DNA from: a virus
Taxonomy: Duplodnaviria > Heunggongvirae > Uroviricota > Caudoviricetes
Virus record (IMG/VR): IMGVR_UViG_2778261248_000002
Direction: 5' to 3' (one strand)
Length of the DNA stretch: 29,890 nt
A program made the position numbers and the translations under genes. The notes beneath the pieces were generated by a model. The model had not been told where the DNA came from, searched no databases, and was given only the letters and a program-made list of their open reading frames with translations. Shown one piece after another: positions 20,628 through 29,890 of this stretch (position 1 is the stretch's first letter; each line of letters starts with the position of its first letter).

Positions 20628-20834
20628 CGCCCGCTTCATGGGGCGCTTTTAATGCAGTTTCATGAATACGTTGGAAGCGCGCCAGACGTCACGGACAATA
20701 CTTCAAATAAGTAAAGCTAATGCATGCAAAAAAATTCACGTCCATGCATACACCAGAAACTGCCATTTATAAGGATGATGTATGCAGTAGCCATATAAAA
20801 AGCTATACTCTTGCCGGTTTATCAGGGGGAGAAA

Positions 20835-21818
20835 ATGCCAAAAGCTGTATCATTGTTCTCGGGTTGTGGTGGTTCCGATGCTGGATTAAGCAAAGCTGGT
20901 TTCGACATCGTTATGGCAAACGATATTTTGCCATATGCGAGAGAGGTTTATCTCGCAAACCTACCAGAAACAGATTACCTAATCCAAGATATCCGAGAAG
21001 TTGAAAAATTTCCGAGTGCAGACCTTCTTGTTGGATGCTATCCATGCCAAGGATTTAGCCAAGGTGGCGCACGTCTTGCGGACAGGAGTATAAATTTTTT
21101 ATATAAAGAGTTTGCACGTGCATTAACCAATATTCAACCTAAAGCATTTATTGTCGAAAATGTTTCAGGTATGAGAAATAGTACATTTAAGCATCTACTC
21201 GATGATCAAATAAAACGCTTCTCCAATGCTGGTAATATAGGCTATAAAGTTGTTTGGAATATACTCAAAGCTCACCACTACGGTGTACCGCAAGAGCGTA
21301 AGAGATTAATAATTGTAGGTATTCGTAACGACTTCGACCTAGAATATAAATTCCCTGAAGCCACACATGGTGAGGAAAAATCATTACCTTATGTAACAAT
21401 CGGTGAAGCACTAAAGGGATTACCTGAATGGCCAATCGGTGAGTTTTGTGATGACCCATTTCACTGGTACTATTTATCTAGGAATAGACGCCGCAACTGG
21501 GACGAAGTTAGTAAAACTATCGTAAGTAATCTTCGTCATATTCCCTTGCATCCCATCAGCCCCGAATTAAAAAAAGTGGGTATAGACAAGTGGGAGTTTA
21601 TAACAAACTCGCCAGCCAGACGCTTCTCTTATAAAGAAGCGGCGATTCTGCAAGGGTTTAGTAAAGAATATACCAATCATGGTGGTTATCTAACTTTTCC
21701 TGACATGGATAGTTTTGGGGCCGCACGGATGTTAAAAGAGAGATATAAGGTCGTAGGTAATGCAGTTCCACCACCTTTGTTTGAAGCGGTTGTGAGAAAC
21801 ATCCCTGATATATGGTAA
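20835..21818 (+). CDS. DNA (cytosine-5)-methyltransferase
   Basis: 327 aa from ATG 20835, preceded by GGGGGAGA. Motif I FSGCGG, motif IV GCYPCQGFS (catalytic Cys), motif VI ENV, QERKR, C-terminal GNAV. AT-rich codon usage unlike the phage backbone. Confidence 0.9.
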   Translation: MPKAVSLFSGCGGSDAGLSKAGFDIVMANDILPYAREVYLANLPETDYLIQDIREVEKFPSADLLVGCYPCQGFSQGGARLADRSINFLYKEFARALTNIQPKAFIVENVSGMRNSTFKHLLDDQIKRFSNAGNIGYKVVWNILKAHHYGVPQERKRLIIVGIRNDFDLEYKFPEATHGEEKSLPYVTIGEALKGLPEWPIGEFCDDPFHWYYLSRNRRRNWDEVSKTIVSNLRHIPLHPISPELKKVGIDKWEFITNSPARRFSYKEAAILQGFSKEYTNHGGYLTFPDMDSFGAARMLKERYKVVGNAVPPPLFEAVVRNIPDIW

Positions 21819-21819
21819 T

Positions 21820-21841
21820 GGCCCATCACTGGGCCTTTTTT
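21820..21841 (+). terminator. putative intrinsic terminator of the methyltransferase gene
   Basis: GGCCCA-tcac-TGGGCC 6-bp stem followed by TTTTTT, 2 nt after the MTase stop. The stop codon of the convergent 318-aa gene lies inside the hairpin loop. Confidence 0.55.
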
Positions 21842-22782
21842 AATTCTTTACAAAAGGTAATTAACGCATCTAACTCATCCTGCATATCACCAAATTCATC
21901 CTTAAAACGCTCATATGCAATAGTTAAACGGACTCGATCAAATATAATTCCAGCTTCTGCGCTTGCTTCTCTTATCATTTCATCAACTAACACATAAGGT
22001 GTTGAGAAAACTTTAACACACTTAATGTAAGTTAATGGATGAAACCATGGTGTTAACCTTTCAATTTTAATATCCTGAAACTTTGTTGGCCAATCATTAC
22101 CACAAGCGCATTGCCCTAAAGCAAATAAACGTCCATCTCTACCATCCAAAAAATCAACCCATGTAACAAAATCCACACCACAATCTTTAATTCTCAATGC
22201 ATCCTCATCTCTTAAGCCATTCTCTACGCGCCAAGACCATTCTCTTGTATTTGGTGAGATCGAAGAGTTCAGTTTATAAGCTAGTTCCTTATAACTACTA
22301 GGATTTCCATTTGAACGAGGCCAACCAGTATGCATGTGTTTTGCGTGTGAACTAAAAAATTTTGTGAATAATCGCCCAGCCATAACTTCAAAAAATCTAG
22401 GCAACTTAACATTATCTCCTTTTGTTAAATTATTAATTACAGAGACACATAAGCAAAACAGATAAACAAGGGAAGGAGACTCCTTTAATGTTAGATGATT
22501 TTCTTTATATTCAAATGGATACATATCATCCAAAACCTTTGCTCTCCATTGTATATGCTCGGCAATCTGACCAACTAAAAGCTCCTTTCCCTGATCTTCC
22601 ATCATCCATTCTTCTTCCAAATGACCATCTAAATTTTCTAACTCATCATAGATAGTTCCAGCAATTTTATCATCCTCAATTCCTGAGTCTATTGTCGCGC
22701 TAACATCAAGTAATGCATTAAATTCTGCTTGATCCGCATCTGTTGCGAATCCCTGCATTTTAGAGCGTAAACCATAATTCAC
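21826..22782 (-). CDS. hypothetical protein (318 aa), second gene of cargo operon, candidate effector
   Basis: Long ORF in AT-rich DNA, tail-to-tail with the MTase. GTG at 22782 is 2 nt after the upstream gene's TAA, suggesting translational coupling; an alternative ATG at 22758 has no SD. Acidic N-terminus; no family recognisable by eye. Confidence 0.6.
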   Translation of the reverse strand: MNYGLRSKMQGFATDADQAEFNALLDVSATIDSGIEDDKIAGTIYDELENLDGHLEEEWMMEDQGKELLVGQIAEHIQWRAKVLDDMYPFEYKENHLTLKESPSLVYLFCLCVSVINNLTKGDNVKLPRFFEVMAGRLFTKFFSSHAKHMHTGWPRSNGNPSSYKELAYKLNSSISPNTREWSWRVENGLRDEDALRIKDCGVDFVTWVDFLDGRDGRLFALGQCACGNDWPTKFQDIKIERLTPWFHPLTYIKCVKVFSTPYVLVDEMIREASAEAGIIFDRVRLTIAYERFKDEFGDMQDELDALITFCKELKKAQ

Positions 22783-22784
22783 AA

Positions 22785-23960
22785 TTAAAAACCCTCACTA
22801 TCACTTCCAGTAATAGCCTCATTAATTGATACTCTAAAAGATCTAAATTGTTTACTTATTTGCTCAAGATATATATTAAGTTGAATAGCATCCTGCATTG
22901 GTAAATCTTCACGCCCTACCCTCGTAAGACATTCGTCCAATTTACTTCTAATTTCTAACATTAAACTAGTCAACCTATCGCCGATTGGCTGAGTTAGGTC
23001 ATTAATGTCTTCAACATCCTTGCCTTGCTTGAGCAGTATAACTTTTTCTGGAGAAGCAACTATCTCAGCCAAGACACCAAGATTACGAGAGTCTTTAACT
23101 TGTGAGTTTTGTCCTTTATTTTTATTACCAAACATAGCTGTCATTAGAAGCTTCGCATTATCCAATTTCTTTTCATCTATTGGATTAGGGTCTGTAGGAT
23201 TATCTGATAAGCCCACAAAATCCTGAATACTCTTATAACTCAGCAATGTATAAACCCACGAGAATGGATAACTAGTATTGCTCCCTCTCCCTTTCTTCAC
23301 ACTATCATCTTTATTATACTTCCCAGCAGACTCCATTTGTTTAATGAAATTATATCCAGACAAAAGTCTTTTTATAGTGCTATTACGGTCACCAATCATA
23401 GTGGAAATATCAGATACGCTCATATCTCCTTCCTTGATGGTTCGAGATATCCATGCAGCCTTAGCGTATGAATCCCAATCCTTTGTAGATACGATATGCC
23501 TCACACCTAAATATGATATAAGTGATTTTTTATCTACACCATCATCGTCTTCAAAAACTATTGCTGGAACTGGGTCTATTTTAGGGCACCCATGAGAATT
23601 GTATTTATCAATATACTGTTGATGCAGATTAACTTGATCTCTTGCTCTGTCATCATTTTTAAGTATAAGACAGGCAGCCAGCCTTCTATTACCTTCCATT
23701 ACAGTGAATTTCTTATTATTATTTTTCCTCACCACCATTGGCTCAGCAGAAAAATAACCATTCACTGCAATAGAACTTATTACATCAGTAACGCCATAAT
23801 TTTTAACAATATTATTCAGCACATCAACTTGTGTATCAGATGAAGAAGAGTCTTCACCAAAGCGGGGGTTTTCAACATCAAGCTCCAGATCTTCAATATT
23901 AATATATTGAACTGCTTTATGTTTTAATTTATCCTCCACACCTACCGAGTTTTTTTTCAT
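22785..23960 (-). CDS. ParB/Srx-like N-terminal domain + HTH protein (391 aa), first gene of cargo operon
   Basis: ATG at 23960 preceded by GGGGAGGGG. N-terminus matches ParB box motifs (INIEDLELDVENPRFG ... PMVVRK...FTVMEGNRRLAACLIL, compare ParB GERRxRAA). Followed by an HTH-like segment (MSVSDISTMIGDRNSTIKRLL). C-terminal roughly 190 aa unassigned. Confidence 0.7.
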   Translation of the reverse strand: MKKNSVGVEDKLKHKAVQYINIEDLELDVENPRFGEDSSSSDTQVDVLNNIVKNYGVTDVISSIAVNGYFSAEPMVVRKNNNKKFTVMEGNRRLAACLILKNDDRARDQVNLHQQYIDKYNSHGCPKIDPVPAIVFEDDDGVDKKSLISYLGVRHIVSTKDWDSYAKAAWISRTIKEGDMSVSDISTMIGDRNSTIKRLLSGYNFIKQMESAGKYNKDDSVKKGRGSNTSYPFSWVYTLLSYKSIQDFVGLSDNPTDPNPIDEKKLDNAKLLMTAMFGNKNKGQNSQVKDSRNLGVLAEIVASPEKVILLKQGKDVEDINDLTQPIGDRLTSLMLEIRSKLDECLTRVGREDLPMQDAIQLNIYLEQISKQFRSFRVSINEAITGSDSEGF

Positions 23961-24156: not shown

Positions 24157-25800
24157 TCAAGCACCACAATCAAAAAAATCAACAGAAGGAAATCCAAGCC
24201 ACTCATCAGCGACCTGATAAGTGAAATGTTTCCCGTCATAATTTACGGTTGCCCCACGCGCCAGCGCCTCAAGCTCCCATCGCTGCGGCCTGATACCGTT
24301 CTGAGCAAGGTCAACGCGGATACGGGTGATTTGCATTCTTTCCGACCGGGTCAGTCTGGCCGATGGTGCAATTTCATGTGGTTTTAACGGGCTTCCGTTT
24401 CTTTGCTGACGGTTTGGCGTTCTCAGGTCGTATTTTAGTGCGCCCCTGAGCGCCCTCACGACCTCCGGTTCATTCCATTCAATAACACCGTCATCAACCA
24501 GATTAAGCACTGCTGCGGCGTGCTCAGAAGGTGTGGGAGCCGGTAACGAAGTATCACCACCGGTGAGCTTTCCACAGTTATTGACAGGACTCCGAGGCGC
24601 GGCGATGCCGCTTTTTAAAGTCAAAGGCTCAACGACCGGAACTTTCGGCACAATGCGCCACTCCGTCGTTCTGGTGATATGAATATGACGCGCGCCGAGA
24701 TGCGGTGCGTAAATGCCGACCACTCTCTCGACCTCTTCCTCGTACTCGTTAACGTCATCCGACGGGCTACGGGCGACCCTGACAGTCTGACAATCGCGCG
24801 GGACATTTGCCCCACCCTGCGCACGGATATACAACGCAAAATCACCACTGTCTGCGGCGGCGTAACGCTCAATACCGGCAATGGTGTTCATCAGCTCCAT
24901 CCGGCGAATTTCAGGATTAGAAATACTGCCCATCACCTTACTGATAAGGTCGATGCGCTCGCCGGTTTCCCTGTTTTCAAGGTCACACGATTTAAGAAAT
25001 TCCAGATTTGCCTGGCGGCGCGCACGCACATCACGAATGGCGTGTTTACTGGCATAAGGAGAACGGTCTTTATTGACCTCCCCGACAGCTATCAGTAACG
25101 CTTCATGCCAGCGCATACGCTGGCCTTTAAGCTGACTAATCCACCACTCATCGTTAAACAGACGGGCAATGGCAGAATATGCCTGCCTCGTGGTCATCTG
25201 TCCTTTACGGTATTTTTTCCAGTAGAGAGGGGAAATATTGAAAGCACGTGCAGCGCCAGCAACATGACCATAGAGGTGAGCCTGCGCCTCATCCGTAAAC
25301 AGCGATTCTTTTTCGCCATGCGCATCCACCCAGGCATCGCAGAGTTCCTCATACATCATGAAAAGCTGCGATGAAATACGGGCGGCAAACTTTTTCAGCT
25401 CCTTATCATTCATCCCCGGCAGACGCGCATAATGGTCACGCTCTGCCAGAAACAGCAACGACGCGTCGGTGTTCATTTCATGGCGCTGATTCACGCGCTC
25501 AATGCGCGGCCATAAACGACGCTGAAAAGTGGATGTGAGGAAATAAAACCCGTGCACCGGGCTTTTATTGCGCCGGATGTAGTCATAGCGTGAAGTAAAC
25601 AGCGAACGCAAAAAGTAAGGCAGGCGGTTAATCGTGGATAAAACACCTTGCACCTGACGCATCTCGTCACGTGTAAGGGGTCTTTCGCGCCCGACGGCCT
25701 CGCGTGGCGCGTTCCATGCATAAGCACCGGTAAACGCCTTACCGGTGCCTGCAGCAAATGCTGAAGGAGGGACAAAACGCCCGGAGGCTTTAACGGCCAT
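24157..25800 (-). CDS. A: replication initiation protein A-like (rolling-circle initiator), apparently shortened
   Basis: 547 aa from ATG 25800 (561 aa from the upstream TTG at 25842). Last and largest gene of the early operon, overlapping orf83. About 200 aa shorter than P2 A (about 761 aa as recalled). Confidence 0.75.
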   Translation of the reverse strand: MAVKASGRFVPPSAFAAGTGKAFTGAYAWNAPREAVGRERPLTRDEMRQVQGVLSTINRLPYFLRSLFTSRYDYIRRNKSPVHGFYFLTSTFQRRLWPRIERVNQRHEMNTDASLLFLAERDHYARLPGMNDKELKKFAARISSQLFMMYEELCDAWVDAHGEKESLFTDEAQAHLYGHVAGAARAFNISPLYWKKYRKGQMTTRQAYSAIARLFNDEWWISQLKGQRMRWHEALLIAVGEVNKDRSPYASKHAIRDVRARRQANLEFLKSCDLENRETGERIDLISKVMGSISNPEIRRMELMNTIAGIERYAAADSGDFALYIRAQGGANVPRDCQTVRVARSPSDDVNEYEEEVERVVGIYAPHLGARHIHITRTTEWRIVPKVPVVEPLTLKSGIAAPRSPVNNCGKLTGGDTSLPAPTPSEHAAAVLNLVDDGVIEWNEPEVVRALRGALKYDLRTPNRQQRNGSPLKPHEIAPSARLTRSERMQITRIRVDLAQNGIRPQRWELEALARGATVNYDGKHFTYQVADEWLGFPSVDFFDCGA

Positions 25801-26065
25801 ATGAGCCAAAAGCCTCTGAACAACGCCTGCTGAGTTGCTCAACCTGCGCGTTTAAATCAGCAAAAGACTTTGCGCTTCCGGTCAGAATATCGTGATGCAT
25901 CAGGCCGGAAACGAGCTGGCTTAATTTCGGATAATAACCAACCACCGCCAGCCATTCCTGACCGGCGTTTTTACCGCTTTCCGCTCTCTTTTTCTCGTGG
26001 AGAATAAACTGAAAGCTGTCACTGGTAACGACATAACGTTCGCCAATTTCAATACGAATACTCAT
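25790..26065 (-). CDS. hypothetical early protein (P2 orf83 position)
   Basis: 91 aa; ATG 26065-26063 overlaps the upstream stop; operon position. Confidence 0.6.
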   Translation of the reverse strand: MSIRIEIGERYVVTSDSFQFILHEKKRAESGKNAGQEWLAVVGYYPKLSQLVSGLMHHDILTGSAKSFADLNAQVEQLSRRCSEAFGSYGR

Positions 26066-26875: not shown

Positions 26876-27376
26876 TTAATGCAGATATTGCTCTGGTTTT
26901 ACCGACGTCAGAATTGTCGGTGCATACTCAAACAGGCTGAATAATTCACGTAATGCACGGAATAAAGCATCACGCCAGTAACATGACTCTTCATTAATTC
27001 GCCAGTATGGCTGATTAAATTCTTTTTCTGTCAATCCGGCGTGCATAAATAAAGTACGACGCTGACTGACTGTTAAAAAACTAATATATGCATGCTCACT
27101 TGCGCCAACCTGACGGCGTTTTGAGAATGCGCCACGCAATTCATCAATTGCACATACCAGTCGTTCACGTTCGACGTCGTTCATTTCTTCAAAACGCATC
27201 GTTGCGTGACGCTGTTTTAACTGTGCATGAAAGCAAACCGTTAGCCGTTCGCGCTCCATCATCTGATTATAATAATCACATGTATCCTGCCAGCGAGGGA
27301 CGGCAAGATGCTTGCCAATTATCCGGCGCATAGCTGCTGGCTGTTTTTCAACGAGATTGAGCGTCATCACTGTCAT
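26876..27376 (-). CDS. B: replication protein B-like (helicase-loader-type accessory protein)
   Basis: 166 aa; ATG 27376-27374 overlaps the upstream stop; position after cox/small ORFs and before orf80-83/A; size matches P2 B as recalled. Confidence 0.7.
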   Translation of the reverse strand: MTVMTLNLVEKQPAAMRRIIGKHLAVPRWQDTCDYYNQMMERERLTVCFHAQLKQRHATMRFEEMNDVERERLVCAIDELRGAFSKRRQVGASEHAYISFLTVSQRRTLFMHAGLTEKEFNQPYWRINEESCYWRDALFRALRELFSLFEYAPTILTSVKPEQYLH

Positions 27377-27543
27377 TTCCAGACCCTCCGGCTTTTCAGA
27401 AAGGTCAGAGCCTTCTTTAACGGACTCTGTTTTTTGGTGCGGATAATGATTCCCTTGCGTCCCTTCCCGTGGGTGATGGTGAAGTCAATCGCCCTGGGGC
27501 TTTCGTTACGCAATAACTGAGCAATACAACGAGGTTCCTGCAT
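27373..27543 (-). CDS. small basic hypothetical protein (orf78-like position)
   Basis: 56 aa from ATG 27543, preceded by strong SD CAGGAGGAG; 4-nt overlap with the B start. Lys/Arg-rich. Confidence 0.45.
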   Translation of the reverse strand: MQEPRCIAQLLRNESPRAIDFTITHGKGRKGIIIRTKKQSPLKKALTFLKSRRVWK

Positions 27544-27660
27544 AACTCCTCCTGAAACAGAGCCGGTTTTTAGCCATGTCCGGCGCATGGTCTTGTGGTA
27601 CTATCCAATTGCTTTCACTCCAAATGTAAGCAAGTAGTTCGTAACACAAGGAATAACGAC

Positions 27661-27837
27661 ATGAATGATTTAGAAAAAACCAAGTTTCTTTTTGAGCAGA
27701 CCTGTTCAGTCATTGGCGGAGCACTTACTGAACAATCAGTAATGCCTGTTCCTGTAGAAACCCGAGCTTCACGCTTATTTGATGCTATCTATCCAGTTCT
27801 TGAGAAAAAACTCGAAGAAAAACTCGCGAAAAAATAG
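27661..27837 (+). CDS. small hypothetical protein, antisense-oriented inside the early operon
   Basis: 58 aa from ATG 27661 with AAGGA 8 nt upstream. AT-rich. Stop is 4 bp from the stop of the convergent 62-aa gene. Confidence 0.4.
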   Translation: MNDLEKTKFLFEQTCSVIGGALTEQSVMPVPVETRASRLFDAIYPVLEKKLEEKLAKK

Positions 27838-27840
27838 GCA

Positions 27841-28029
27841 TTACTCGCACTGGTGAATAAAGTCCAGTACGCCAGCGATAACGCTGATATCTTTGCCGGA
27901 CACCTGTTTATCTAAGCGTCCGGCCTCTTCTTTGATGAAATCCCCGATTTTTACCGCCAGTTCTAAAATTTCTCTCTGCGTCAGTGCCTTATCTGTGCCG
28001 CACTGGTTCGTACTATTTTTGTTCGCCAT
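27841..28029 (-). CDS. small hypothetical early protein
   Basis: 62 aa; ATG 28029-28027 preceded by AAGGGGA; 54 bp downstream of cox. Confidence 0.5.
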   Translation of the reverse strand: MANKNSTNQCGTDKALTQREILELAVKIGDFIKEEAGRLDKQVSGKDISVIAGVLDFIHQCE

Positions 28030-28083
28030 GATGTTCCCCTTATGCCGTCCGCCCTGTTGCTGACAGCCTGATTTAGCAATGAT

Positions 28084-28356
28084 TTAAAGCCCCATCCACA
28101 GCAGCCACGCGTCCCGCTGTTCTATCGGTCGGTTGTAGAATGCCTCACGCACACCACGATTGAACTCAGGAATGAAAACCAGTTTGTCTCCTGCACGAGC
28201 ATTCGGCTTAGTTGGATCGCGAAATTCAACTACCGGCAACTTGTTAGCTTTGATCATTTCAACGACCGCAGTACGCGGTTTTCCGAGCAATTCTGCAAAC
28301 TTGTCAGGGTGTACCGCATCAATCGGATACTTAACCACATAGTTGTTTGCGTCCAT
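28084..28356 (-). CDS. cox: Cox-like excisionase/early repressor of Pc
   Basis: 91 aa from ATG 28356 (MDANNYVVKYPIDAV...), preceded by GAGAGG. C-terminus ...AFYNRPIEQRDAWLLWMGL resembles the P2 Cox C-terminus as recalled. Divergent from C. Confidence 0.8.
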   Translation of the reverse strand: MDANNYVVKYPIDAVHPDKFAELLGKPRTAVVEMIKANKLPVVEFRDPTKPNARAGDKLVFIPEFNRGVREAFYNRPIEQRDAWLLWMGL

Positions 28357-28473
28357 AAAACACACCTCTCGTGCTAATCTTATCCGTCCAGCCCTCTTAA
28401 AACCGCTCAGGATCGTTCCTGACTGGCTGGACTCACGCCCCAAAAGGTTTCCGAACAAGTACCTTTTGAGGGG

Positions 28474-28503
28474 AATATAGTCTCCATAGGGGAACCATGT
28501 CAA
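28474..28503 (-). promoter_or_regulatory. early promoter Pe candidate (sigma70 -35/-10)
   Basis: Minus strand TTGACA (28503-28498), 18-nt spacer, TATATT (28479-28474). The -35 abuts the C start codon. Flanked by direct repeats GAGGGGAA (28468-28475) and TAGGGGAA (28487-28494). Confidence 0.55.
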
Positions 28504-28797
28504 ATGAAAATATCGGAGAAACTTCGCGCTATTCGCAAGGCCGAGGGATTAACACAAAAAAAATTTTGCGAGCTTAGTGGATTAGCACTTAGTTCGTTGA
28601 AAAATTATGAAGGTGGACATAAAGAGCCAGGACTACAAATCGTAAAGCAAGTAGTCAACACACCGCTGTTTAAAAAATATACATTATGGATTATGACAGA
28701 TGAGATTGCGCCAGAATCCGGGCAGATTTCCCCGGTCGTCGCACACTCTGGGCCAGAAGAAACAACATCGTCACACTCAGGCCGCAAAACTGGCTAA
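28504..28797 (+). CDS. C: immunity repressor C (P2 C-type)
   Basis: 97 aa; C-terminal ...KYTLWIMTDEIAPESGQISPVVAHSGPEETTSSHSGRKTG closely resembles the P2 C C-terminus as recalled; N-terminal HTH-like segment; upstream of int on the same strand. Confidence 0.85.
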   Translation: MKISEKLRAIRKAEGLTQKKFCELSGLALSSLKNYEGGHKEPGLQIVKQVVNTPLFKKYTLWIMTDEIAPESGQISPVVAHSGPEETTSSHSGRKTG

Positions 28798-28909
28798 CTA
28801 TTTACCGACATTACATGCACATAAAATGCATGTTACTGGTAAAAAAATATTCATCACACAACCACAAAGGGCTAAACAACAAGAAAACTCGTGTTCATCG
28901 GGGGGCTTT

Positions 28910-29890
28910 ATGAGTATCAGAAAGCTCGATGATGGACGTTATGAAGTGGATATCAGGCCTCGCGGTCGCGATGGAAAACGCATCCGCAGGAAATTTGAAA
29001 GAAAAGCTGAAGCGGTAGCATTTGAGCGATACACAATCGTCAATGCCAGTCAGAAAGAATGGGGAGGCCAGCGAGCAGACCGCCGAACTTTGACAGAATT
29101 GCTCGACATCTGGTGGAAATACCACGGGCAAAACCACGAGCATGGGACAAAAGAGTTTAATCATCTGCTCAAAACCATCAGCGGCATAGGTGATATACCA
29201 GTGAGTCGGATGAACAAAAGGGCTTTGATGGATTATCGCTCCATGCGACTACGTGATGGCATCAGTGCTGCAACGATAAACCGCGACATGTACCGATTAT
29301 CCGGCATGTTCACAAAATTAATTCAATTGGATGAATTTTCCGGGCAACACCCAATTCACGGACTGCCGCCACTGACGGAGGCTAACCCTGAAATGACGTT
29401 CCTGGAAAAAGCAGAAATCGAAAAACTGCTAAATGTTTTGACTGGTGATGACTTACTTGTCGCGCTTTTATGTCTGAGCACTGGAGGAAGATGGACGGAA
29501 GTTGCCACGCTAAAACCAGCACAGATTACAAGTTGCAGGGTTACCTTCCTGAAAACCAAAAACGGTAAAAAGCGAACAGTGCCGATTTCTGAGGAACTGG
29601 AGAAAAAAGTTAAAGAGGAGGCCAGCGCCAAATTGTTCAAGGTAGATTATGAGAAGTTTTGCGGGATTTTACGCAGAGTGAAACCTGATATACCTCCCAA
29701 TCAGGCAACCCACATTCTGCGGCATACATTCGCAAGCCATTTCATGATGAATGGGGGCAACATAATTGCACTGCAACAGATTCTGGGGCATGCGAGCATT
29801 CAGCAGACAATGACCTATGCGCACCTTGCGCCTGACTACCTGCAGAACGCCGTCGCTCTGAATCCACTAAAAGGCGGAGTGACGTTATAA
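28910..29890 (+). CDS. int: tyrosine integrase (P2 Int family)
   Basis: 326 aa from ATG 28910. Catalytic-region motifs HILRHTFAS and HASIQQTMTYAHL (Tyr nucleophile). TAA at 29888-29890 is the last triplet of the window. Confidence 0.9.
   Translation: MSIRKLDDGRYEVDIRPRGRDGKRIRRKFERKAEAVAFERYTIVNASQKEWGGQRADRRTLTELLDIWWKYHGQNHEHGTKEFNHLLKTISGIGDIPVSRMNKRALMDYRSMRLRDGISAATINRDMYRLSGMFTKLIQLDEFSGQHPIHGLPPLTEANPEMTFLEKAEIEKLLNVLTGDDLLVALLCLSTGGRWTEVATLKPAQITSCRVTFLKTKNGKKRTVPISEELEKKVKEEASAKLFKVDYEKFCGILRRVKPDIPPNQATHILRHTFASHFMMNGGNIIALQQILGHASIQQTMTYAHLAPDYLQNAVALNPLKGGVTL

Follow-up and report, generated by a model that had tools for sequence, protein, structure and literature searches.

A conserved convergent gene pair in the early operon of P2-like prophages, possibly wired for reciprocal expression

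A convergent pair of small early-operon genes

We focus here on a convergent pair of small ORFs in a P2-like prophage, one encoding 58 aa on the plus strand and the other 62 aa on the minus strand, within a 29,890-nucleotide stretch of DNA that we refer to as the window (Table 1). Three bases (27838-27840) lie between the two stop codons. The pair is flanked by cox (28084-28356; Pfam Phage_Cox, E=1e-22) and by an orf78-like gene (27373-27543), beyond which B (26876-27376) comes next. The plus ORF is antisense to the Pe-driven operon, and its predicted promoter faces C (28504-28797; Pfam HTH_3) and int. The initial annotation had put the pair between cox and B, which is right on the cox side, while the left neighbour is the orf78-like gene and not B itself. 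Its description of the plus gene as antisense inside the Pe early transcript, in the interval between cox and the orf78-like gene, is borne out by the mapped ORFs and by Pe at 28503..28474, and both ORFs are present with the Shine-Dalgarno sequences that it had read for them. The span it assigned, on the other hand, began at 27595, the GTG of an 80-aa form whose extension is unconserved and is located ahead of the predicted transcription start; the true start of the plus gene is placed at the ATG at 27661. It had also called both genes AT-rich, which holds for the plus ORF (38.4% GC, the 8th percentile within the window) and not for the minus ORF (46.6%), whose value is close to those of B (44.3%), C (43.2%) and int (47.2%) and slightly below that of cox (49.1%).

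Table 1. Coordinates of the genes and predicted signals at the locus
Feature	Position	Strand	Details
Pe early promoter	28474..28503	-	TTGACA-18-TATATT, 11/12 match; drives cox, minus gene, orf78-like gene, B, A
Minus gene, 62 aa	27841..28029	-	PGAP CDS WP_001284599.1; phrog_12968, E=1.4e-47; within Pe early operon
Shine-Dalgarno AAGGGGA of minus gene	28035..28041	-	read from sequence, 5 nt from ATG
Plus gene, 58 aa	27661..27837	+	PGAP CDS WP_000998639.1; phrog_14615, E=8e-45
Shine-Dalgarno AAGGA of plus gene	27648..27652	+	read from sequence, 8 nt before ATG
Predicted plus-gene promoter, extended -10 TGgTACTAT	27596..27604	+	hexamer 27599-27604; sequence-level call
5' stem-loop of predicted plus mRNA	27609..27633	+	TTGCTT 27609-27614 / AAGCAA 27628-27633
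Two interleaved inverted repeats upstream of plus promoter	27562..27590	+	repeats A and B
Terminator-like hairpin of plus transcript	27895..27934	+	GCCGGAC 27895-27901 / GTCCGGC 27918-27924, tail CTCTTCTTTG 27925-27934

Both ORFs are annotated by PGAP in E. coli genomes and match PHROG entries over their full length (residues 1-58/58 for the plus and 1-62/62 for the minus protein), the entries themselves carrying no function. Purifying selection acts on both, with dN/dS of 0.06-0.5 for the plus gene and 0.17-0.35 for the minus gene and with dS saturated in each case. The plus frame is the only one open in 22/22 related loci and the minus frame the only one in 20/20, the other five frames of both genes' loci carrying stops in 18-22 loci. 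A profile search for relatives of the plus protein returns a coherent family of 56-72 aa with the motif M-x-x-E-E-K-x-x-F-L-F-x-Q-T-C ... F-D-x-x-Y-x-x-L-E-x-K-L-x-E-K-L, its invariant motifs holding across 35-88% identity, while the minus family shares L-T-x-x-E-x-x-x-L-A ... K-A-x-x-x-x-K-x-x-S-G-x-D. Furthermore, Shine-Dalgarno sequences and start codons are conserved, and the context of the plus-gene Shine-Dalgarno, ACACAAGGAA, is kept in relatives. A reading of one or both ORFs as non-coding spacer or leader sequence in the early operon could appeal to their very short length and to the lack of detectable known domains, but against this selection, these closed alternative frames, the conserved initiation signals and the coherent protein family it is extremely improbable. 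In particular, conservation of the same sequence as a non-coding leader in related phages, which the initial annotation had set against its own proposal, is excluded by dN/dS of 0.1-0.35. Sequence comparison thus identifies both ORFs as real genes, far beyond chance.

The AF2 model of the plus protein is a helical hairpin (helices 3-24 and 32-57; pLDDT 86), and that of the minus protein has a disordered N-terminus followed by helices 18-39 and 45-60 (pLDDT 74); both families are acidic to neutral. Searches of Pfam, NCBIfam and PADLOC gave no significant match for either protein, sequence profile searches of the PDB gave nothing below E=0.05, and Foldseek of both models against the PDB gave nothing below E=3, helical hairpins of ~60 aa being uninformative in fold searches. 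The two families were also considered as diverged paralogues, which they are not, since hhalign gives a probability of 0.1%. Our literature search returned no mention of these proteins, of the carrier phages vB_YpM_115 and vB_YpM_117 or of such a pair.

Distribution, co-inheritance and position of the pair

P2 and L-413C have no cassette, and the gap between cox and orf78 is 2 bp there. It occurs in 47 E. coli genomes, as against 1906 copies of the B-orf78 backbone in 1669 genomes, which amounts to ~2.5% of E. coli P2-like prophages. Known lysogens that have it are many, among them E. coli 746 (NZ_CP023353) and a set of 43 identical carriers. Besides E. coli, the source hosts include Klebsiella, Salmonella, Enterobacter, Citrobacter, Yersinia and Edwardsiella. 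A first profile search of genome contigs returned no carriers, a second with a wider profile returned three loci, including carriers in Trabulsiella and Kluyvera, and a metagenome scan added little. When five family members were compared by tblastn with 50,697 phage records, the only matches were the isolated phages vB_YpM_115 and vB_YpM_117, which carry the cassette; its presence is therefore compatible with phage viability.

In 20/22 distinct lineages both families occur, always in convergent orientation and with their stops -18 to +21 nt apart, and this co-occurrence persists down to ~35% identity for the plus and 15-30% for the minus protein. Co-occurrence is also the sole basis for regarding the two proteins as partners. 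Within the early operon the pair occupies one of three sites, always in the same orientation to Pe: most commonly immediately downstream of Pe and ahead of cox (L022, L024, L029, L033, L035, L036, L037, L047, L049 and L050), after cox (the window, L001, L004, L008, L010, L019 and L052), or after cox plus two genes (L046, L048 and L051). In L024, the stretch adjoining the minus gene is homologous to the C-cox region of the window.

As judged from this distribution, the two genes form an old cassette that has been inherited jointly in P2/186-like prophages throughout Enterobacterales and has moved as a unit. The initial annotation had proposed a moron and a comparison with other P2-like prophages for presence or absence. 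Absence from P2 and L-413C and the plus gene's own promoter and terminator signals agree with that proposal; the idea of a recent, AT-rich, phage-specific acquisition has to be abandoned, since the cassette is old, shared across Enterobacterales and mostly located between Pe and cox.

The two genes could nevertheless be functionally unrelated cargo neighbours, one an early gene and the other an independent lysogenic-conversion moron. Two lineages (L013/L014 and L020/L023) do keep the plus gene beside an unrelated convergent partner, and the lack of homology between the families points the same way. Such independence is difficult to square with co-occurrence down to such low identities, with joint moves to three positions in the same relative orientation and with near-abutting stops, and with a plus-transcript hairpin that codons of the partner form and that paired amino-acid changes preserve (see below), and we consider it distinctly unlikely.

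Transcription signals of the two genes

No promoter-like site lies between the minus-gene Shine-Dalgarno and the end of cox, and a promoter scan of 27300-28900 found only Pe; the minus gene is thus predicted to have no promoter of its own and to depend on Pe for its expression. The plus unit looks as though it carries its own promoter and terminator signals. Its predicted promoter is an extended -10 element with only a poor match at the -35 position (ATGTCC), from which transcription would start at about 27610-27612. The element, TGnTAnnn(T/A), is found in 22/22 lineages, 41-77 nt upstream of the plus ATG, while the flanking sequence diverges. A hairpin of differing sequence occupies the same place in 20/21 leaders (mean z = -2.4 vs shuffles), the window's own 5' stem-loop being weak (dG -4.7, z -0.6).

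Two interleaved inverted repeats precede this promoter, A pairing GCCGG (27562-27566) with CCGGC (27580-27584) and B pairing CCATG (27574-27578) with CATGG (27586-27590). Repeat B lies 2-6 nt before the TG in 18/21 distinct lineages (shuffles: mean 1.4, max 5) and is 94% paired, with 8 double-change cells vs 1.6 in shuffles. In 301 kb of fetched loci, the composite A+B motif occurs at this site only, apart from one second copy in L022. An operator, a hairpin in the minus-strand early mRNA and an insulator are candidate roles for the conserved repeats, which the model of reciprocal expression set out below leaves unexplained. Two other readings were rejected. A plus-strand promoter upstream of A, which would make A/B a leader attenuator, finds no room and no conserved motif in the interval from the neighbouring gene's RBS to hairpin A, and an H-type pseudoknot formed by A and B would have a connecting loop of 0-1 nt, which is too short. 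By eye, no LexA box or C-operator-like repeat was seen upstream of the plus gene in the window sequence.

At its other end, the plus transcript has a terminator-like hairpin inside the partner gene, embedded in minus-gene codons about 32-46 (K-E-E-A-G-R ... V-S-G-K). In the window it is only moderate (dG -12.9; tail CTCTTCTTT), so that read-through toward cox, C and int is possible. The homologous codons hold a hairpin in 19 lineages. It is 89.5% paired, as against 76% for shuffled and 33-43% for slid positions, and shows 25 double-change cells vs 10 in shuffles (0/500) and a covariation score of 0.42 vs 0.21, and its arms are kept through paired amino-acid changes (A-G-R/V-S-G, A-R-E/L-S-G, V-R-D/F-S-D). 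The hairpin and its T-rich tail, which is found on the plus strand only, lie 31-90 nt past the plus stop and ahead of the switch region, and the hairpin is strongest (dG -15 to -23) in loci where read-through would reach Pe/Pc. Where the plus gene has another partner, as it does in two lineages, its stop is directly followed by a canonical hairpin and T-run. The loops are long (12-18 nt), longer than those of canonical terminators, and the wobble pairs (8 G.U vs 6 A.C) do not single out the strand whose RNA is selected. The T-rich tail is made of Lys/Glu codons that the minus protein itself may need. Rfam returned no RNA family over 27200-28900.

These signals also bear on whether the plus unit acts mainly as RNA, its backward-firing promoter damping Pe-driven early expression and the ORF being secondary; the antisense transcript, like 186 pE, lambda PRE or lambda OOP, might then continue into C and int. 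The promoter does face C and int, the commonest arrangement puts it just downstream of the first early gene, like pE and PRE, the predicted transcript and the early mRNA share ~320 nt of complementarity, and the window's terminator is of limited strength. P2/186 switches, moreover, already use convergent promoters (PMC3448106). The plus protein, however, is under strong purifying selection, with motifs that stay invariant over a wide range of identity, and a conserved hairpin with a T-rich tail stands before the switch, strongest precisely where read-through reaches Pe/Pc. There is no CII-like protein among the neighbouring ORFs, in which Pfam matches only Cox and HTH_3 (C), and the window's unit, which lies downstream of cox, is thus unable to oppose cox expression. 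A mainly RNA-based role is, in our view, quite improbable.

The initial annotation had also suggested a toxin/antitoxin-like pair. A toxin-antitoxin or abortive-infection module on convergent, 3'-overlapping transcripts, like txpA/RatA or bsrG/SR4, would suit the layout in a prophage, the co-inheritance of the partners and the small size of the genes. Neither protein is hydrophobic, however: the highest 19-aa Kyte-Doolittle means are 0.18-1.41 in the plus family and 0.45-1.2 in the minus family, and GRAVY is -0.21 (plus) and -0.28 (minus). Both partners are protein-coding and under purifying selection, which leaves no non-coding antitoxin RNA; the genes are on opposite strands and share no operon, so the pair is not type II; and a would-be antidote that is dependent on Pe would be off in the lysogen. 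Taken together with the lack of PADLOC, Pfam or NCBIfam matches, this makes such a module very unlikely.

Reciprocal expression and relation to known systems

For expression timing, interference and the interaction or function of the proteins, we infer the following model. The cassette may be wired for reciprocal expression, the plus gene being active in lysogens and the minus gene during lytic growth, a proposal to which we give an even chance. The plus gene would be an autonomous unit running from the extended -10 and a start at ~27611 through the 5' stem-loop, Shine-Dalgarno and ORF to the hairpin inside its convergent partner, and the minus gene would be transcribed from Pe only, together with the rest of the early operon. 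In the lysogen, Pe would be silenced by C, and the plus gene could thus be expressed alone, as a transcript of ~320 nt ending before cox or the Pe/Pc switch. Upon derepression or infection, the strong Pe would transcribe across the whole plus unit, yielding the 62-aa protein and silencing the plus gene, either through collision of polymerases or through occlusion of its promoter, with pairing of the two fully complementary RNAs as a second route. The initial annotation had envisaged mutual interference with early gene expression, and, given the convergent layout, such mutual interference with transcription from Pe is very likely. As for the products, both of them small acidic helical-hairpin proteins, they would be functional partners, one a lysogen-phase factor and the other an early lytic factor taking its place or neutralising it, and their target might be the lysis-lysogeny decision or a prophage-protective function that has to be lifted for the phage's own lytic growth.

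A more specific and, we think, unlikely proposal is that the cassette adds a further layer, at the protein level, to the P2/186 lysis-lysogeny switch, with the minus protein as a commitment factor and the plus protein as its lysogen-phase antagonist. The minus protein, the first Pe product in most carriers, would then antagonise, for example, the non-cleavable C repressor, Cox or Int, and each state would exclude the other by virtue of a third convergent promoter and of a terminator written into codons of the partner.

P2 and 186 are textbook models of bistable switches and of transcriptional interference between convergent promoters. A conserved, undescribed convergent unit in their early operon, often right after Pe, would add a new element to them, and since it is carried by about one in forty E. 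coli P2-like prophages and by many in Klebsiella, Salmonella, Enterobacter and Yersinia, the tuning of lysogeny, induction or superinfection may differ in carriers. The terminator-like RNA hairpin maintained in a convergent gene via paired amino-acid changes is a clean natural example of dual coding. Furthermore, both proteins are unannotated, small and without known relatives, so that any function found would be new; the families phrog_14615 and phrog_12968 record neither the pairing nor the regulatory anatomy.

Several known systems resemble the cassette in part. First of all, a moron, in the definition that Hendrix and colleagues reportedly gave for lambdoid phages, is a promoter-gene-terminator insertion that forms an autonomous unit within a phage genome. 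The cassette is similarly missing in close relatives with conserved flanks, and its plus gene has promoter and terminator signals of its own, a GC content below that of the genome and a predicted placement for expression when the surrounding operon is repressed. It differs in being a two-gene unit whose second gene uses the host operon's promoter, in having its terminator-like hairpin within the partner's coding sequence, in always lying in the early operon beside the immunity switch instead of at the usual P2 cargo sites, and in being old and widespread, not sporadic.

Second, promoters that fire backward in lytic operons include pE of coliphage 186 (anti-apl) and lambda PRE (anti-cro), and lambda OOP RNA is antisense to the 3' end of cII. 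Like pE and PRE, the predicted plus promoter is located beyond the lytic promoter and fires back in the direction of the repressor gene; as with all three, the transcript would be antisense to an early gene, and, as with OOP, it is predicted to end inside the 3' part of a convergent gene. Unlike all three, the plus unit encodes a conserved protein. Unlike pE and PRE, it has a conserved terminator-like hairpin that argues against the transcript reaching the repressor gene, and it has no CII-type activator, its full extended -10 looking constitutive.

Third, txpA/RatA and bsrG/SR4 are type I toxin-antitoxin pairs of Bacillus subtilis prophages with convergent 3' overlap. Small convergent transcription units with overlapping 3' ends in a prophage are common to these and to the cassette, which, on the other hand, has no membrane peptide, encodes a soluble conserved protein in each partner and has one partner belonging to the phage early operon.

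Finally, the switches of P2 (Pe/Pc) and 186 (pR/pL) are built on convergent promoters (PMC3448106) that interfere face to face (PMC3448106, PMC1904263). The cassette occurs in the same phage family and likewise opposes a strong lytic promoter with a weaker one on the opposite strand. It differs in that this predicted promoter is an additional one, located downstream of Pe at a distance of ~850 bp in the window and of ~300-400 bp in relatives that carry the cassette before cox, and in that it would control not the repressor but a separate small protein.

Two convergent genes in the early operon

A P2-like (Peduovirus) prophage's immunity and early region makes up the right end of the window; in it, a plus gene of 58 aa and a minus gene of 62 aa converge, their stop codons separated by 3 bases (see table). 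Since cox and the orf78-like gene lie only 2 bp apart in the P2-type phage L-413C, the window carries an insertion of ~540 bp (27544-28083) relative to P2. The Shine-Dalgarno (SD) sequences proposed for both ORFs in the initial annotation are present, while its description of the pair as AT-rich holds for the plus ORF (38.4% GC, 8th percentile of the window) but not for the minus ORF, which at 46.6% GC resembles its neighbours. The more upstream start implied by its span (27595), a GTG-started 80-aa version of the plus ORF, is not conserved.

Both ORFs are annotated by PGAP in 43 E. coli genomes with an identical segment; they are also annotated in Yersinia phages vB_YpM_115 and vB_YpM_117, and each protein has a full-length match to a PHROG family of unknown function. 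Across relatives, the plus gene has a Nei-Gojobori dN/dS of 0.06-0.5 and the minus gene one of 0.17-0.35, and dS is often saturated. Only the called frame is stop-free in every locus (22/22 plus, 20/20 minus), all others having stops in 18-22 of the compared loci. These comparative data exclude non-coding sequence at the two ORFs, including the non-coding state in relatives that the initial annotation had set against its own reading.

An inverted repeat directly downstream of the −10 of Pe, the early promoter, is likely an operator for the repressor C or else a hairpin at the 5' end of the early transcript. Replication gene A encodes only 561 aa, compared with 762-795 aa in relatives, and its match to Pfam Phage_GPA covers positions 1-186 of 321; gene A seems to lack the catalytic half, and the prophage is therefore probably replication-defective. 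The three genes downstream of A (20811-23960) are possibly defence or restriction cargo at P2's tin/old site.

Coordinates of features in the window and in relative loci (L numbers)
Feature	Coordinates	Strand	Remark
C-5 cytosine DNA methylase	20811-21818	+	downstream of A
ORF without family	21826-22782	-	downstream of A
ORF without family	22785-23960	-	downstream of A
Replication gene A	24157-25842	-	
B	26876-27376	-	
orf78-like gene	27373-27543	-	
Inverted repeat A	27562-27566/27580-27584		GCCGG/CCGGC
Inverted repeat B	27574-27578/27586-27590		CCATG/CATGG
Predicted extended −10	27596-27604		TGgTACTAT
Leader stem-loop	27609-27633		weak
Plus gene, 58 aa	27661-27837	+	
Minus gene, 62 aa	27841-28029	-	
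Terminator-like hairpin	27895-27924	+	GCCGGAC/GTCCGGC
cox	28084-28356	-	
Inverted repeat at Pe	28442-28448/28461-28467		AAAAGGT/ACCTTTT
Pe	28503..28474	-	TTGACA-18-TATATT
C	28504-28797	+	
int	28910-29890	+	
Unrelated partner ORF, 132 aa	L013 4194-4592		same lineage: L014
Unrelated partner ORF, 103 aa	L020 2684-2995		same lineage: L023
Second inverted repeat + TGnTA	L022 3955-3986		before 153-aa plus-strand gene

Joint inheritance and the shared hairpin

Among the fetched loci, a convergent minus-family gene follows the plus gene in 20 of 22 distinct lineages, with stop-to-stop distances from −18 nt (overlap) to +21 nt; the pair is an old cassette, inherited jointly. Source-named hosts are E. 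coli, Klebsiella spp., Salmonella enterica, Enterobacter, Citrobacter, Yersinia, Edwardsiella, Trabulsiella and Kluyvera, and in Providencia the plus gene occurs with a different partner. The cassette occupies three positions in the early operon, namely directly after Pe and before cox (L022, L024, L029, L033, L035, L036, L037, L047, L049, L050), after cox (window, L001, L004, L008, L010, L019, L052), or after cox and two further genes (L046, L048, L051), and the minus gene is co-oriented with the operon at every one. In L024, the stretch from C to the minus gene has recognisable homology to the C-cox switch region of the window, so the minus gene is the first early gene there. The cassette is present in 47 of 5426 complete E. 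coli genomes; set against 1906 copies of the B-orf78 backbone in 1669 genomes, this amounts to ~2.5% of E. coli P2-like prophages. The two Yersinia isolates are the sole carriers in a set of 50,697 phage records. The window itself has a mosaic joint within the plus ORF (examined over 27560-27940): 27560-27713 is 100% identical to vB_YpM_115 and the E. coli Trh52 prophage, with divergence from 27714 rightward, where the minus gene, cox and C are of a different immunity type.

Every cassette has, 31-90 nt past the plus stop and inside the minus gene, a hairpin on the plus strand followed by a T-rich tail (in the window, the tail is CTCTTCTTTG). It is made of homologous minus-gene codons across lineages, and its arms change in pairs (A-G-R with V-S-G, A-R-E with L-S-G, V-R-D with F-S-D). 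In an ungapped alignment of 19 sequences, 89.5% of cells are paired, where column shuffles give 76% and slid partners 33-43%; double-change cells number 25 against 10 expected (0/500 shuffles), and covariation scores 0.42 versus 0.21. Wobble counts (8 G.U, 6 A.C) do not discriminate between the strands. T-richness of the tail is confined to the plus strand, and the hairpin should therefore stop plus-strand transcription and spare the early transcript. In the two lineages with an unrelated convergent partner ORF (L013/L014 and L020/L023), the plus gene retains its position, orientation and promoter, and a canonical hairpin with a T-run lies directly 3' of its stop. That the two genes are merely unrelated neighbours is contradicted by their co-inheritance, their joint relocation and the hairpin common to both.

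Promoter region and predicted expression

A nonamer, TGnTAnnn(T/A), lies 41-77 nt upstream of the plus ATG in 22/22 lineages while its surroundings diverge; it matches an extended −10 at the key positions and is the predicted plus-gene promoter, with only a poor −35 match in the window. A stem-loop of lineage-specific sequence follows 3-6 nt past the −10 in 20 of 21 leaders (mean z −2.4), compatible with a 5'-terminal stabilising hairpin and a predicted start near 27611, and is followed by an SD of the ACACAAGGAA type. Directly upstream of the −10 lie two interleaved inverted repeats (27562-27590). Repeat B recurs in 18 of 21 lineages (shuffles average 1.4, with a maximum of 5) with compensatory arm variants (CCATG, CCACG, CCCTG, GCTGC), 94% pairing and 8 double-change cells against 1.6. 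It lies roughly between −37 and −21, not within the predicted plus mRNA, and could be an early-mRNA hairpin ahead of the next ribosome-binding site, or an insulator; its variable spacing (5-9 nt) and two different-armed copies in L022 argue against a simple operator. In 301 kb of loci, the composite of repeat and promoter motif is found only at the cassette position, bar one copy in L022. This second copy precedes a 153-aa gene at the site of C in relatives, and the element thus appears to be a portable promoter module.

Comparison across lineages thus shows a plus gene with its own conserved predicted promoter, leader and terminator-like hairpin, in a co-inherited pair. The minus gene has no promoter-like site in front, and its predicted expression depends on Pe. 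In the lysogen, with Pe held off by C, the plus gene alone would be expressed, as a transcript of ~320 nt ending within the minus gene. Firing of Pe would yield the minus protein and transcribe through the entire plus unit, suppressing it via collision or occlusion and RNA duplex formation. Coupling to Pe looks essential, as the cassette lies strictly within the early operon and never at the usual P2 cargo sites. An antisense promoter acting at the RNA level, as in pE, PRE or OOP, agrees in orientation and disagrees with the strong constraint on the plus protein and with the conserved stop ahead of the switch. We give the reciprocal logic of Pe and plus promoter roughly even odds.

The two proteins and known systems

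Word-indexed searches returned few relatives; a full profile search revealed a wider plus family of 56-72 aa, with invariant N-terminal (EEKxxFLFxQTC) and C-terminal (FDxxYxxLExKLxEKL) helices around a variable loop. The minus family (52-82 aa) has the motif LTxxExxxLA...KAxxxxKxxSGxD. Both are predicted to be helical hairpins (pLDDT 86 for plus, 74 for minus); the families are acidic to neutral (pI 4.3-8.9), have no hydrophobic segment and no relationship to each other, and neither protein has matches in Pfam, NCBIfam, PADLOC, PDB sequences or PDB folds. In character the two seem closer to protein-binding modulators than to DNA binders or membrane toxins. A toxin-antitoxin pair, which the initial annotation had given as one example, or an abortive-infection pair fails on the defining features tested. 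One protein may instead be a factor for the lysogen phase and the other its counterpart in early lytic growth, both targeting the switch or a prophage-protective function; any specific role for either is much less probable than the expression logic.

In the searchable literature we found no description of the pair, its proteins or the phages that carry it. Conceptually it comes nearest to morons, to the promoters of temperate phages that fire backward, and to the interference between convergent promoters in P2 and 186 (PMC3448106, PMC1904263). The cassette differs from these in having two genes, with predicted reciprocal wiring, and a terminator-like hairpin written into the codons of the partner.
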